A stretch of DNA of 6,847 nt from a virus (lineage: Duplodnaviria > Heunggongvirae > Uroviricota > Caudoviricetes): the IMG/VR virus record IMGVR_UViG_2563366891_000008. One strand, written 5' to 3'. Position numbers and translations under genes: made by a program. Of this stretch, positions 2,825-5,802 are shown in pieces. Under the pieces are notes generated by a model that had not been told where the DNA came from, ran no database searches, and saw only the letters and a list, made by a program, of their open reading frames with translations. Within the stretch, counting starts at the first letter, position 1. Every line of letters begins with the position of its first letter.

Positions 2825-3241
2825 TCACTTCAATAAATACCGAACATTTCCCTGATAAAATTCCAGTATGCGCTGCATAACTTCGCTCTGACGACACTCG
2901 CGACAAATTATATTCTGTCGTCTGTTGTAACGGCGTATTTCGCCATCTAGCAATGAATAAATCAGGTCAGGATCGCTCTTCTTTTTCACTGCCGCTCTCG
3001 ACATTTTTTTGCGGGCTTTTCCCCAGTCCTTACGAGCCTGCTCCGAAGGAAATATTCCATGTCCTGAACTATATATTGCGCCACTAACTACCAGCTCTTT
3101 CGCCAGAACTTCTATCAGATGTCTCGTAGCCCCGGTTTCATTTTCCAGTTGTTTACGCGTTTTTCGCCCATCTCTGCGTACCAGTTCCACAATGCGCGCC
3201 TTCACTTCTTCCCGCAGTTCGGGAGTAAAAACTTTTGCCAC
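2825..3241 (-). CDS. 138-aa basic protein with HTH-like N-terminal region and C-terminal CxxC; function unknown
   Basis: ORF with GTG start at 3241..3239 preceded by strong SD AGGAGG (4-5 nt spacing). Immediately downstream of the O-like gene in the same operon. The 3' end is more AT-rich than the 5' end. Confidence 0.7.
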   Translation of the reverse strand: MAKVFTPELREEVKARIVELVRRDGRKTRKQLENETGATRHLIEVLAKELVVSGAIYSSGHGIFPSEQARKDWGKARKKMSRAAVKKKSDPDLIYSLLDGEIRRYNRRQNIICRECRQSEVMQRILEFYQGNVRYLLK

Positions 3242-3278: not shown

Positions 3279-4349
3279 TTACCCTCTGAATCCCGGCGGA
3301 ATTTCGGTGTCCGGTTCAGAAATATGATTAACACAACGCTGGTTGTTCGTGCCGCTTACCGGGAGCAACCAGGGGTTTTCAAAATTCCGGTCCGGTCCAA
3401 AAAACGTCGTCGCTCGCTGAACAAATTCCGTTCCCGTTTTCCCGGTAGCAGCCAGGTATCTTGTGTAACGCCTCACACCATCCAGCATGGCCTCTGGTGG
3501 CACCCCCTCGCGTAATCTGGCCTTCCAGGCACTGAAAGCGGATTTTTTCGGGTTTGCCCCGGCTCGTAACGGGTATTCCCGCCAGACCTGTTCGAACACA
3601 TCCGGATAATCCACTCGTCCCACAGGCTGCCCGATGTTTTCCGGGACTACCCGATCGGCTTCCCGCTGAATGGCGGAATCGGCTTCAGGCTGCTGCAGTT
3701 GGTGTGATTGCTCCGACCCTGCGGTCATCGCCTGCTGCACAGCGCCCGAATCGGCTTTCAGCGCATACGCTGAATCGGCTTCCGGTGTCGTGCCTGCGGG
3801 CTGGCCAGGAGTGACGGTCTGAACATCCCCTACATGGTTCGTGGCGTTTTTTACGCCATGGACCATAGTGTTTTGATCTTCTTTATCTGTATCTCTATCT
3901 GTATCTTTATCTGTCGTGACTCGTCGTGACATGTGCGTGACATTTCGTGACGCGCCGTGACAATCGCCATTTTGTTCCCGCTTTCTTTCCCTCTCACGCT
4001 GCGCCCTCTTGCGCTCTGCCGGAGATTTTGCGGTTTGCGAAATATTGCCGTTGTCCTCTTTAAGCACCTGGCGTTTTTCCCATCCAGTGATTAAATCACC
4101 ATCAAGTACCCGCCCCTGCATCGTCTGCAAAATTGAATCAATTACCTCTTCTGTCACGTCGAGCGCACTTGCCAAATCTTCTGTCGTGACATCAATGTGA
4201 CCTCGCGTGACATTTCGTGACGCGCTCACCAGGAGGTGGATATACACTGCCATCACTGTTGCAATTGGTTGCCCTGACACCCTGGCAATTGTTCGCCACT
4301 TAGGGTCATTTGGCATGTCATGCCATAATCTGAGCCAGGCGTTAGCCAT
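3279..4349 (-). CDS. Phage replication initiator (lambda O-like functional analogue; possibly YdaU-like) carrying internal origin iterons
   Basis: Long ORF; probable start ATG 4349..4347 with SD GAGGTGAG (the track's 4355 is an upstream GTG). Sits after the cro/cII-like genes. Contains two clusters of 10-bp-periodic CGTGAC repeats plus AT-rich hexamer repeats, as the lambda ori lies inside O. Confidence 0.8.
   Translation of the reverse strand: MANAWLRLWHDMPNDPKWRTIARVSGQPIATVMAVYIHLLVSASRNVTRGHIDVTTEDLASALDVTEEVIDSILQTMQGRVLDGDLITGWEKRQVLKEDNGNISQTAKSPAERKRAQRERERKREQNGDCHGASRNVTHMSRRVTTDKDTDRDTDKEDQNTMVHGVKNATNHVGDVQTVTPGQPAGTTPEADSAYALKADSGAVQQAMTAGSEQSHQLQQPEADSAIQREADRVVPENIGQPVGRVDYPDVFEQVWREYPLRAGANPKKSAFSAWKARLREGVPPEAMLDGVRRYTRYLAATGKTGTEFVQRATTFFGPDRNFENPWLLPVSGTNNQRCVNHISEPDTEIPPGFRG
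3884..3913. repeat. Tandem hexamer repeat TATCTN x5 (AT-rich block adjacent to iterons)
   Basis: tatctg tatctc tatctg tatctt tatctg read directly from the sequence; encodes a TDKDTDRDTDK linker in the O-like protein. Confidence 0.7.
3911..3961. repeat. Putative origin iterons, cluster 1: five direct repeats of CGTGAC at 10-11 bp spacing
   Basis: CGTGAC at 3915, 3925, 3936, 3946 and 3956. Helical-turn periodicity, inside the initiator gene. Confidence 0.65.
4181..4225. repeat. Putative origin iterons, cluster 2: four (C)GTGAC repeats at ~10 bp spacing, including an exact 21-bp copy of cluster 1
   Basis: (C)GTGAC at 4185, 4196, 4206 and 4216. The 21-mer gcgtgacatttcgtgacgcgc is identical at 3935-3955 and 4205-4225. 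An inverted copy GTCACG lies at 4153-4158. Confidence 0.6.
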
Positions 4350-4420
4350 ACTCACCTCTTCTGATACCGAATCTTTTTACTCACGAGTTGCCGGAAGCGA
4401 TTCGATATGGCTATTGTCAG

Positions 4421-4846
4421 TCAATGTACTGCCACAGCATTTCCTGCCGGGCCACCACGGTTCATCTGATTGAAACCGGCGATTGCCACTGCGACAAAAT
4501 CATCAGCGTCTCTCACCAGTCGCTCCCGCGTCTCCACCAGCTCCCGAAAATAAGCTGAACTGTGGCTGCGCATTCTGGCCACCAGCAAAGGTGGCATTGC
4601 CTTTTCGATCGCTGGTAACAACGCCTGAATTTTTTCAACTGCATCAGGGGTGTCTTTCTCTACCCAGCGGAAAATTTTCTGGGTATTGCGAGCCAGGGCT
4701 TCCGGATGGCTGTCGTCATACAGTTCCGGGAACGTCATTCCCAGCTCGAAATACGCTTTGGTAATTTTCGCAGCCGGTACTTTTTCGCCGTCCGGATGCG
4801 CCCAGGCATTCATCGCCATGCGGATGTGTTCATGCTTGATTTTCAT
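4421..4846 (-). CDS. YdaT-like protein (CII-like functional analogue of Rac-type prophages), 141 aa
   Basis: Start ATG 4846..4844 with SD GGGGGG; protein begins MKIKHEHIRMAMNAW.... The ORF-track start at 4918 is an upstream in-frame ATG without SD. Overlaps the end of the cro-like gene by 17 nt. Family assignment is from memory. Confidence 0.7.
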   Translation of the reverse strand: MKIKHEHIRMAMNAWAHPDGEKVPAAKITKAYFELGMTFPELYDDSHPEALARNTQKIFRWVEKDTPDAVEKIQALLPAIEKAMPPLLVARMRSHSSAYFRELVETRERLVRDADDFVAVAIAGFNQMNRGGPAGNAVAVH

Positions 4847-5072
4847 GAATCCCCCCTTGGTTAGAAGGCGGATTATGATCAGAACCGGGAATGACAACCG
4901 TCGGTATGTGTAACTCATATTTGAGCGCCCCGGCAGTGACTGCCTGAATTAGCAACGCCCATTTCCACGGAACCTCTTCCCCCCACATGCTGACTGTGGT
5001 TTTTGACGTTCCTAGAGCTGCGGCTGTTTTAACAACTCCGCCAAAATAGCCTAATACTTCTGATTTTTTCAT
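4830..5072 (-). CDS. Cro-like HTH regulator (YdaS-like), 80 aa
   Basis: Start ATG 5072..5070 with SD GGAG at 6-nt spacing. HTH signature VKTAAALGTSKTTVSMW. Divergent from the CI-like gene. Confidence 0.75.
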   Translation of the reverse strand: MKKSEVLGYFGGVVKTAAALGTSKTTVSMWGEEVPWKWALLIQAVTAGALKYELHIPTVVIPGSDHNPPSNQGGIHENQA

Positions 5073-5100
5073 GAGTCGCTCCATAAAACTGAACGTCAAA

Positions 5101-5163
5101 AGTTTAATAATCAAAACCAAAGAAAGTCAAGAAACAAAACCATCTGTGTTTTAAAATCAAAAC
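5101..5163. promoter_or_regulatory. OR-like operator region with divergent promoters (pR on the minus strand, pRM-like on the plus strand)
   Basis: Three GTTTT-N6-AAAAC-type sites at 23-bp spacing: 5102-5117 gtttaataatcaaaac, 5125-5140 (degenerate) and 5148-5163 gttttaaaatcaaaac. Candidate pR on the minus strand: -35 TTGACT (5130..5125), 18-bp spacer, -10 TAAACT (5106..5101). Candidate pRM: -10 TAAAAT (5152-5157), 6 nt before the cI ATG, implying a leaderless transcript. Confidence 0.5.
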
Positions 5164-5802
5164 ATGAGCAAGCAAACTATATCTGAACGCATAACCCAAC
5201 GTATGCATGCGCTAAACCTGAAAGGCAAAGACCTTGTCAATGGCACTGGCGCATCAAAAGGCTCCGTAAGTCAATGGATGAACGGTGGAGGAGCGCCGTC
5301 CTCGCGTTACATAAGTTCACTGGCAAAAATATTGAAAGTAAACGAAAATTGGCTTCTTAATGGAGGAGAGTTAAATACAGGTGATTCGCTTGATCTATCT
5401 TTACCGCCGATAAAAACGGTTCCGCTACTATCACTTCAGCAGGCAGCAAGCTGGAGTGATTATATGAAAAATTCCTCAATAACCTCTTGTGTGCAGCTTG
5501 TCGGAGAAATCCCGGTCAATACCTTTGCAGTTGTTCTAGAGAGTGACAGTATGTCAACATCTGGTGGGGGAGTTTCCATCCCAAATGGTTCAACAGTTTT
5601 TGTTGATCCCGATCGAACCGTACAACCAGGAAATATTGTCCTTGCCTTACCCAAAGGGACCACAACACCTGTCATTCGTAAACTGGAGATAGAAGGGCCG
5701 GATATTCTTTTAGTCCCCACGAATCCTCGCTACCCTTCAATTATGCTGGATGATCTATCTTGCATATTGGGCGTATGCTTTAAAATTCAACAAGATATTT
5801 AA
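5164..5802 (+). CDS. Lambda CI-type immunity repressor (N-terminal XRE-type HTH, C-terminal S24/LexA-like autocleavage domain), 212 aa
   Basis: HTH segment GASKGSVSQWMNG. C-terminal ...SDSMS...VFVDPDRTVQPGNIV...VIRKLE...LVPTNPRYPSI... parallels lambda CI GDSM...VDPEQAVEPGDF...FKKL...LNPQYP (Ser/Lys dyad). Divergent from the cro-like gene. Confidence 0.9.
   Translation: MSKQTISERITQRMHALNLKGKDLVNGTGASKGSVSQWMNGGGAPSSRYISSLAKILKVNENWLLNGGELNTGDSLDLSLPPIKTVPLLSLQQAASWSDYMKNSSITSCVQLVGEIPVNTFAVVLESDSMSTSGGGVSIPNGSTVFVDPDRTVQPGNIVLALPKGTTTPVIRKLEIEGPDILLVPTNPRYPSIMLDDLSCILGVCFKIQQDI

Follow-up and report, generated by a model that had tools for sequence, protein, structure and literature searches.

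A candidate replication origin of helically phased repeats inside the replisome organizer gene of a lambdoid prophage

Introduction

Short direct repeats inside a phage gene for replication initiation raise the question of whether they form the origin on which the encoded protein acts or have some other role. The repeats considered here lie in a 6,847-nucleotide stretch of viral DNA (the window; IMG/VR record IMGVR_UViG_2563366891_000008), and the element that carries them is an E. coli Rac/Qin-like lambdoid prophage in which the initiator gene stands in the context repressor, cro, cII-like, initiator. An initial annotation, made from the letters alone, had read these repeats as origin-like iterons embedded in the initiator gene. 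Each sequence-level prediction of that reading that was checked held, and the repeats most likely represent a lambda-type in-gene origin, although both the protein and the repeat design are unlike those of lambda. They are probably the replication origin of the prophage, and the domain that binds them is probably the N-terminal domain of the initiator itself. The full-text literature on replisome-organizer iterons and in-gene phage origins yielded no description of the origin of this family, and a paper on the replication region of Stx phages mentions neither origins nor iterons. The homologues used for comparison come from a scan of one genome per species; a scan of viral contigs returned only loci that are 99% identical.

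Repeat arrays in the initiator gene

The initiator gene occupies positions 3279–4349 on the minus strand and encodes 356–358 residues. The mechanical open reading frame starts with GTG at 4355, and the database homologues start with ATG at 4349 (MANAW...). The gene contains two arrays of direct, helically phased repeats, with five and four cores that are 10–11 bp apart. Cluster B (3915–3961, minus strand; nt 389–435 of the gene) features five GTCACG cores on the coding strand with 10/11/10/10-bp spacing. On the plus strand these read CGTGAC and start at 3915, 3925, 3936, 3946, and 3956 (spacing 10, 11, 10, 10), so that the five copies initially placed here are all exact and at helical-turn spacing. 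Cluster A (4185–4221, minus strand) had been described as four further CGTGAC copies, of which three are exact (plus-strand starts at 4185, 4206, and 4216). The fourth is a one-mismatch variant since positions 4196–4201 read TGTGAC; on the coding strand the cluster consists of three GTCACG and one GTCACA with 10/10/11-bp spacing, which along the plus strand is the helical spacing of 11, 10, 10. A lone inverted core, GTCACG on the plus strand at 4153–4158, is located 27 bp off cluster A in the Asp-Val-Thr codons GAC GTG ACA; it was missing from the initial list of repeats.

The clusters share a two-iteron unit of 21 bp, GCGTGACATTTCGTGACGCGC, which occurs with the same letters at 3935–3955 and 4205–4225 and is absent from shuffled sequences, confirming the reported identity. 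The two copies are separated by 270 bp (90 codons) and share a reading frame. The peptides predicted from the repeats were also found, ASRNVT twice and TDKDTDRDTDKED.

CGTGAC occurs 10 times in the whole window (2.4 expected), a count attained in 0 of 200 shuffles, and the gene has 6 helical spacings, where codon shuffles have at most 1. Recent slippage or gene conversion could yield an exact 21-bp duplicate, and the repeats might on that account be a functionless recent duplication, a recombination scar, or chance. However, no shuffle matched the observed counts and, as described below, the architecture is kept in distant homologues. We give this explanation practically no weight and regard it as refuted because the repeats are conserved family-wide.

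A promoter-like match at 3937–3964 was rejected; it is made of iteron sequence, and the number of such matches (4 versus 2.7 expected) is at chance level. An Rfam search returned sok alone, thus no known RNA element accounts for the region.

An AT-rich tract and a palindrome next to cluster B

Five tandem TATCTN hexamers adjoin cluster B at 3884–3913, as had been reported, and Tandem Repeats Finder returned a period of 6/12 at 3880–3914. They are included in an AT-rich tract (3867–3914, minus strand) that is a candidate DNA unwinding element. Its coding strand is purine-rich, with the pattern (GATAAA/GATACA/GATAGA)n, and codes for TDKDTDRDTDKEDQ. Among 40-bp segments of the gene, 3871–3910 has the highest AT content, 75% versus 46%. 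At 67–75% AT the tract is milder than classical unwinding elements, and several intergenic stretches of the window exceed it. In 68 homologues the 36 nt past the last iteron have a mean of 65% AT and 74% purine, compared to gene means of 44% and 57%.

Two features lie beyond the region first described, namely the start of the tract at 3867 and an imperfect 33-bp palindrome at 3834–3866 that adjoins it. The palindrome reads ATGGTTCGTGGCG-TTTTTTA-CGCCATGGACCAT and codes for MVHGVKNATNH; as single-stranded DNA it has a folding energy of -12 kcal/mol (z = -7.0). A hairpin at the equivalent relative position is enriched across the 68 homologues (block-rank test, Wilcoxon p = 8e-7), an enrichment that may partly stem from the GC-rich composition of linker regions. 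An earlier test based on the site of the most stable 36-nt segment gave weak enrichment (21% vs 11%). The palindrome is also present in POCJ13, where the initiator has a different N-terminal domain. The proposed resemblance to lambda ori, with iterons followed by AT-rich DNA but a different iteron, agrees with the order of the elements and with their position in the gene.

The initiator protein

The protein belongs to phrog_3729, 'replication initiation protein' (E about 9.8e-252), its NCBI name is 'phage replisome organizer', and its nearest cluster at 90% identity has 5,786 member sequences. The initial annotation had called the protein O-like. The assignment as a replication initiator stands on the basis of phrog_3729 and the NCBI name; homology to lambda O does not, as the protein has no match to PF04492 (Phage_rep_O), no Pfam match even at E ≤10, let alone above threshold, and a BLASTP E value of 0.22 against lambda O. 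The protein is O-like in function only because it is not homologous to lambda O.

Two PHROG 'replisome organizer' families match the initiator (E 3.5e-6 and 3.8e-4). The N-terminal domain gave 12.9 bits with PF09681, below the cut-off of 23.3, and the match to TIGR01714, 15.5 bits with a cut-off of 49.8, is aligned end to end (residues 7–127 to 1–119 of 119). These matches tie the N-terminal domain weakly to known DNA-binding families. The AlphaFold model of the full-length protein has low overall confidence (pLDDT 58), with moderate confidence for the N-terminal domain and pLDDT <50 for the linker (aa 130–245). A Foldseek search of the model against the PDB found nothing significant (best E 1.7), and a profile search with the N-terminal domain against PDB sequences found no match; helix-turn-helix DNA-binding domains top the Foldseek list, but these matches are not significant and are no more than suggestive. 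Cluster A codes for aa 43–56 in the N-terminal domain, which form the end of helix 3 and a low-confidence loop. Cluster B codes for CHGASRNVTHMSRRVTT in the linker, which is modelled with low confidence.

The C-terminal domain and tail are encoded at 3279–3620 on the minus strand. The domain (aa ~246–335) is modelled with a pLDDT of about 90, and the PHROG matches of the initiator include families of DnaD-like helicase loaders and of primosomal proteins. The tail, SEPDTEIPPGFRG, aligns with SEPDSQIPPGFRG and SEPDNHIPPGFRG from the C-terminus of DnaT chains 2ru8, 6aep, and 9zbt, and it has the DnaT tail motif SEPDxxIPPGFRG as a near match to E. coli DnaT. The initiator was not identified as a full-length DnaT, since NF002770 gave 18.2 bits versus a cut-off of 201 and the last 24 residues alone match. 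Next to the initiator gene the prophage encodes no helicase or loader, and no P-like loader gene follows it. These features are consistent with a C-terminal domain that is presumed to be a helicase or primosome recruitment module.

Conservation of the repeats and selection at the DNA level

Among 79 homologous genes from different species, 69 have one hexamer that is repeated at 10- or 11-nt spacing beyond any of 200 codon shuffles, and the repeats are located at constant positions, nt ~130–165 and ~350–450. Comparison across homologues had been suggested as a check, and the case that would speak against an origin, homologous initiators with no conserved repeats at this position, is not what was found. 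The architecture persists down to 33–40% gene identity in the Gamma-, Beta-, and Alphaproteobacteria. Two-iteron units common to clusters A and B are found in 24 of 58 homologues, with spacers that are lineage-specific.

The repeats could also be viewed as protein repeats, with SRNVT and TDKD selected for the role of the initiator and the DNA pattern as a secondary result. Both 21-mers are in one frame and each codes for ASRNVT, and acidic/basic low-complexity linkers are frequent in proteins. However, successive cores fall in all three reading frames because of the 10–11 bp phasing, which is no multiple of three; the cores of cluster B are in frames 1, 2, 0, 2, 0, and the dipeptides that the core encodes differ accordingly (CH, SR, VT). 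Cluster B and the tract also code for a segment that is modelled with very low confidence. Entropy is 0.11 bit at the four-fold degenerate sites within the cores, compared to 1.60 bit at 24 other conserved four-fold sites (22 species, p = 9e-5), whose codons vary freely, and the four-fold sites of the cluster A cores are near-invariant in 22 species. At the inverted copy, Val65 is encoded by GTG in 20 of 20 GTCACG-class genes that retain this Val (22 compared); this site had no role in the selection of the compared sequences. The pattern indicates that selection on the repeats acts at the DNA level and not at the peptide level. The protein-level explanation is highly improbable, and is effectively refuted because the synonymous sites of the cores are frozen.

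Alternatively, the arrays might be bound by the initiator for control, through autoregulation, titration or 'handcuffing', or superinfection exclusion of related phages, with the true start of replication elsewhere. Plasmid iterons have such a dual role, as they double as control elements. The arrays are within a transcribed gene, where bound protein could obstruct RNA polymerase, and cluster A is 224 bp from the AT-rich tract and absent in six of the homologues, so it is not universally required. Against this, the last iteron adjoins an AT-rich purine tract and a hairpin across the family, an arrangement typical of origins rather than operators. Additionally, the complete 46-kb genome of the related phage Tritos has motif clusters in this gene alone (9 of 25 motif sites), with no other cluster that could be an alternative origin. 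We consider control alone to be unlikely, and an origin within the gene remains the preferred explanation.

Repeat classes and mosaic genes

The repeated hexamer differs with initiator lineage, being GTCACG in 28 genes, CGAACG/GAACGC in 23, GTAACG in 5, GCAACG in 4, and GTGACG in 2, and it switches in both clusters together. Mosaic genes are informative about the part of the protein with which the repeats travel. Three homologues share the N-terminal domain, differ in their C-terminal domains, and keep the repeats; POCJ13 shares the C-terminal domain, has a different N-terminal domain, and has no repeats. The recombination joint of the modular initiator is located immediately past the AT-rich tract. 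As judged from these genes, the repeats are co-inherited with the initiator N-terminal domain and vary with it. The link of the repeat classes to the protein classes cannot be separated from phylogeny, and no class-tracking residue of the N-terminal domain could be assigned among the homologues because class and clade coincide.

That the initiator binds the repeats is a step that we infer, and the binder might be a different one, such as a host factor, a terminase acting on a packaging signal, a partition protein, or a transcription regulator, with the site lying in the initiator gene incidentally. Packaging sites within genes are found in some phages, as with pac in terS genes. However, both main hexamer classes occur in Pseudomonas hosts and in Acidovorax hosts, so the hexamer is not set by a host factor, and the repeats persist on exchange of the C-terminal domain but vanish on exchange of the N-terminal domain. 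The virion modules around the gene differ among relatives, which according to their record names are siphoviruses, a myovirus, and a podovirus. DnaA boxes (TTWTNCACA, ≤1 mismatch) are not enriched, with 15 in the window versus 14.6 expected and none in 3834–3961; a DnaA-dependent origin was rejected on the lack of a box cluster in the window. An unrelated binder or process is improbable, and binding by the initiator itself is retained in what follows.

Proposed mechanism and significance

In the proposed mechanism, the initiator would bind the repeats and fire the origin. The helix-turn-helix-like N-terminal domain would recognize the 6-bp GTCACG cores, and with one core per helical turn the bound monomers would be aligned along one face of the DNA. 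A multi-protein complex would form on the five cores within the code for the linker (cluster B), the four cores 270 bp upstream (cluster A), and the inverted core, and the DNA between the clusters might be looped. This complex, along with rightward transcription through the gene, would open the AT-rich, purine-skewed tract of 48 bp, with the 33-bp palindrome as the boundary of the opened DNA. Recruitment of the helicase-loading machinery of the host would then fall to the C-terminal domain with its DnaT-like tail. Both the melting of the tract and this recruitment route are steps that we infer.

A more extended proposal, possible but rather doubtful, is that this is a widespread and undescribed bipartite origin of Proteobacteria phages. 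One cluster would be recognized by the same DNA-binding domain that it helps to encode, both clusters would be homogenised and grow or shrink by 21-bp quanta, and the initiator would bridge clusters A and B with the DNA looped. The mimic of the DnaT C-terminal tail would lead to the replication-restart primosome of the host in place of a loader of the phage. Since 21 bp is equal to two helical turns and to seven codons, such an origin could evolve without frame breakage, and it would be a clean case of a cis element and a reading frame that share the same bases.

If the origin assignment is correct, it would provide a sequence rule for origins in a large family of Proteobacteria temperate phages and prophages that is currently without an annotated origin: phased hexamers at two fixed sites of the 'replisome organizer' gene, followed by a purine-rich AT tract and a hairpin. 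The classes GTCACG, GAACG, GTAACG, GCAACG, and GTGACG would be a natural set for the study of co-change in initiator and iteron specificity, and could help to forecast replication incompatibility or cross-activation among co-resident prophages. The DnaT-like tail and the absent loader gene suggest a testable route of host helicase loading. The 400-bp segment and the gene are a candidate compact replicon. A search for plasmids with the gene as sole replicon gave 11 matches, which are large plasmids that contain inserted prophages, chromosomes filed in the wrong category, or phage-sized Pseudomonas circles.

Comparison with known phage origins

Lambda O features an N-terminal domain that binds ori and a C-terminal domain that binds P, and ori consists of four iterons, an AT-rich region, and a palindrome. 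The locus described here resembles lambda in that the iterons occupy the middle of the initiator gene, where the linker is encoded (nt 349–433 of O in lambda and nt 389–435 in the window) and are followed, along transcription, by an A-rich, purine-skewed tract and an inverted repeat. The genes around the initiator and its modular build are also lambda-like. The repeats themselves differ, as lambda has four 18-bp iterons and the cores in the window are 6 bp long, direct, and one per helical turn. The lambda iterons have internal dyad symmetry and are bound by O dimers. The window additionally has a second cluster in the code for the N-terminal domain and one inverted copy, and its initiator has a DnaT-like tail instead of a P-like loader gene after it.

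In the Bacillus phage SPP1, oriL is located in gene 38, where 'AB boxes' bound by the replisome organizer G38P lie beside an AT-rich unwinding element, and a 356-bp fragment is necessary and sufficient for in vitro replication (PMC5737612). The window protein has the same NCBI functional name and weak matches to replisome-organizer families; however, the kinship is remote or unproven, with HMM scores under the curated thresholds, and both a helicase and a loader are encoded by SPP1 itself. SPP1 likewise has two separate regions that bind G38P, oriL and oriR, but its second region is elsewhere in the genome, whereas that of the window is 270 bp away in the same gene.

The origins of the lactococcal temperate phages TP901-1 and Tuc2009 consist of short direct repeats within a gene of the replisome-organizer type, and when cloned these repeats confer phage resistance through titration of the initiator. 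The host phylum and the repeat sequences are different from those of the prophage described here. The satellite phage P4 has 8-bp iterons in two separate clusters, ori and crr, both of which are bound by the alpha protein and needed in cis. Its clusters are separated by kilobases and are located outside the code for the initiator DNA-binding domain, and alpha is an unrelated primase-helicase, but P4 provides a precedent for a bipartite origin that is bridged by its initiator.

Prophage region and the initiator gene

The 6.8-kb window belongs to a lambdoid E. coli prophage of the Rac/Qin type and represents its immunity and replication region. Sequenced temperate phages (e.g., Tritos and Evi) carry nearly identical DNA, as do thousands of E. 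coli genomes. The region features a LexA-family cI-like repressor (5164-5802, + strand), a P22-Cro-like gene (4830-5120, - strand), a YdaT/cII-like gene (4421-4918, - strand), a 358-aa initiator ORF (3279-4355, - strand), and a DUF977 gene (2825-3241, - strand). Over its full length the initiator matches the 'replication initiation protein' family PHROG 3729 (E 1e-251), and NCBI names it 'phage replisome organizer'. As called mechanically, the YdaT/cII-like ORF shares 89 nt with the cro-like gene; it probably begins in fact at an internal Met (MKIKHEH...), given that its match in PHROG starts at residue 22. The window also holds a complete hok/sok-type toxin-antitoxin module (1089-1413), consisting of a Hok/Gef ORF (1089-1244, - strand) and the sok RNA (1242-1413, - strand; Rfam RF01794, 106.7 bits). 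In a moron-like position, with the replication module on one side and the hok module on the other, an AT-rich 269-aa ORF on the opposite strand (1869-2678, +) encodes Cys-x2-Cys pairs (CNICGK ... CSHCNNK); it has no match in Pfam and matches only the unknown-function family 21495 in PHROG, and Tritos carries a different gene in the same slot.

Iteron clusters in the window and in the family

All elements of the candidate origin are located within the initiator gene. The window contains 10 copies of the hexamer CGTGAC (+ strand), which reads GTCACG on the coding strand, versus 2.4 expected; no shuffle had as many as 10. Cluster B (3915-3961) has the five copies originally described, at spacings of 10, 11, 10, and 10, and five TATCTN hexamers were likewise located in an array at 3884-3913. 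Cluster A (4185-4221) had been described as four copies; three are exact, whereas the fourth is a variant, TGTGAC, at 4196. The 21-mer said to be identical in both clusters is present in exact copies at 3935 and 4205, and a single inverted copy of the core lies at 4153-4158. The only motif clusters in the complete 46-kb Tritos genome are the two inside the initiator gene.

A scan of one genome per species gave 80 loci, with N-terminal regions 33-98% identical, to which homologues from phage records were added. Comparison of iterons across homologues, named as a check in the initial annotation, revealed repeats at two fixed gene positions: 69 of 79 genes repeat a single hexamer at a spacing of 10/11 nt (or double), exceeding all 200 codon shuffles, and the repeats always fall at gene positions nt ~130-165 and ~350-450. 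A few homologues have the second cluster alone. The hexamer is GTCACG in 28 genes, CGAACG/GAACGC in 23, GTAACG in 5, GCAACG in 4, and GTGACG in 2, and within any one gene both clusters use the identical hexamer. Close relatives can show a single-base change in all copies together, as in the loci L107 and L109 (GTAACG) versus L111 (GTCACG). Pseudomonas and Acidovorax each host both main classes, and the class therefore tracks the phage protein and not the host.

The repeats belong to the N-terminal module of the initiator. Alignment of database homologues revealed mosaic proteins, in which the same N-terminal domain is joined to another C-terminal domain; these retain both the Cys-His, Ser-Arg, Val-Thr signature in the protein and the cores in the DNA, as seen in E. 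albertii (L088, with a DnaT-like PF17948 domain), Aeromonas (L002), and Pseudomonas (L003). The initiator gene of Shigella phage POCJ13, which has the same C-terminal domain and a different N-terminal one, contains no such cores. The junction of the two modules is located directly past the AT-rich tract.

Constraint on the DNA

Comparison of synonymous sites indicates that the repeats act at the level of DNA and not of peptide. Read in succession along the coding strand, the cores use all three frames and give the dipeptides Cys-His, Ser-Arg, and Val-Thr. The stronger test covers 22 GTCACG-class genes from different species: the seven four-fold degenerate third positions inside the cluster A cores are almost invariant (mean entropy 0.11 bit), versus an average of 1.60 bit for 24 further conserved four-fold sites in the same domain (Mann-Whitney p = 9e-5). 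The His51 codon is CAC in 22 of 22 of these genes, whereas other His codons are mixed. The Val codon of the Asp-Val-Thr encoding the inverted copy is GTG in 20/20, which is an independent confirmation because this site was unused when the sequences were selected.

At 10 + 11 bp, a pair of cores spans 21 bp, a length equal both to two helical turns and to exactly seven codons. In 24 of 58 homologues, identical two-iteron stretches of at least 14 nt occur in clusters A and B, and the lineage-specific spacers point to repeated homogenisation of the two clusters. Natural variants change in 21-bp (7-aa) steps; an extra TCHGVSR, for instance, is present in cluster A in several proteins of E. coli and in E. 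albertii L088. The exact 21-mer of the window is therefore a recurrent trait of the family and no oddity of a single sequence. A separate repeat, AATCGGCTT(C), occurs in four copies at 3654-3785. Their spacings (24, 72, and 24 nt) are each divisible by three, and the copies encode a (P)EADSA peptide that is repeated in the linker. In-frame deletions between the copies distinguish E. coli homologues (e.g., P0002 and P0006), and the motif is found in POCJ13 too, despite the different N-terminal domain of its initiator. It may act as a peptide motif, or the repeat may be prone to recombination.

AT-rich tract and palindrome

The last core of cluster B is followed by a 48-bp AT-rich tract (3867-3914), which reads (GATAAA/GATACA/GATAGA)n on the coding strand and includes the 40 bp with the gene's highest AT content (75% vs 46%). 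The matching 36 nt in 68 homologues average 65% AT and 74% purine versus gene means of 44% and 57%. Beyond the tract is an imperfect 33-bp palindrome (3834-3866) that folds as single-stranded DNA (-12 kcal/mol, z = -7). Stable hairpins are enriched at the corresponding position in the family (p = 8e-7), to which the GC-rich composition of the linker may contribute. Presence and position of the hairpin are conserved across homologues, but its sequence is not. In non-enteric homologues it is often a C-run/G-run stem, e.g., CCCCCCTGAGGGGGG, and several others have C(TTCG)G-type loops; hairpins past the purine tract lie ~40-70 nt beyond the last iteron in L003, L004, L093, L096, L099, L100, L109, and L129. 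The palindrome also scores as terminator-like on the + strand, antisense to the initiator, with a 14-pair stem and then a T-rich tail. It could be a stop for antisense transcription, or the score could be a coincidence of the neighbouring pyrimidine-rich tract. The E. coli homologue P0018 (302 aa), a natural variant, has an in-frame deletion (CHGAS-----PEAD), aligned to window ~3780-3945, that takes out most of cluster B, the AT-rich tract, and the palindrome. If the repeats are an origin, a prophage with P0018 should not be able to replicate.

Initiator protein and helicase loading

The AlphaFold model of the initiator features five helices in aa 6-80 (pLDDT 60-80), a helix at aa 112-129, and a confident C-terminal domain (aa 246-335). 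Cluster A is encoded at a low-confidence loop (aa 49-54), while a region of very low confidence (aa 130-245) accommodates cluster B, the AT tract, and the palindrome, which places the cis-acting elements in the parts of the protein that structure constrains least. The N-terminal domain has sub-threshold matches to PF09681 and TIGR01714 and matches replisome-organizer families at PHROG level; a structure search with the initiator model and a profile search of PDB sequences with this domain gave no significant match.

The C-terminal tail NHISEPDTEIPPGFRG (aa 335-358, window 3279-3350) is nearly that of E. coli DnaT, NTVSEPDSQIPPGFRG, and its last 13 residues, SEPDTEIPPGFRG, are a near copy. Other family members have a complete DnaT-like ssDNA-binding domain (PF17948) in place of this tail. 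Together these features suggest that the initiator may engage the host's replication-restart primosome or its DnaB-DnaC complex. Past the initiator the prophage has no helicase or helicase-loader gene, but instead the DUF977/Ren-like gene (2825-3241), whereas relatives in Aeromonas, Pseudomonas, and Ralstonia do have one. Among the relatives compared (loci L002, L003, L006, and L168), Aeromonas pAEv1818 has a protein of 246 aa with the annotation 'replicative helicase', POCJ13 a DnaC loader, Pseudomonas a primase-helicase, and Ralstonia DnaB.

Comparison with known origins

The initial annotation had proposed an origin inside the initiator gene, and comparative evidence that was able to refute this proposal supports it. 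Most probably the repeats serve as the phage's origin of replication, which the N-terminal domain of the initiator itself would read. The chief rival reading is that initiator binding to the arrays serves control and not initiation. The candidate origin is notable mainly for its clean DNA-level constraint and its reach across a large phage family. A description of this origin was not found in the literature searched, although one may still exist.

The kind of system is already well known, and the present case is a variant. The annotated iterons of lambda lie at nt 349-433 of O with an A-rich purine tract next; cluster B lies at nt 389-435 of the initiator gene with the same downstream order, and the initiator has no detectable protein relationship to lambda O. 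The oriL of SPP1 has iterons and an AT-rich unwinding element within the replisome-organizer gene and is necessary and sufficient for in vitro replication (PMC5737612). Unlike lambda and SPP1, the system in the window lacks a loader gene and has direct 6-bp cores, one per helical turn, an inverted core copy, and a second cluster in the coding region of the putative DNA-binding domain.
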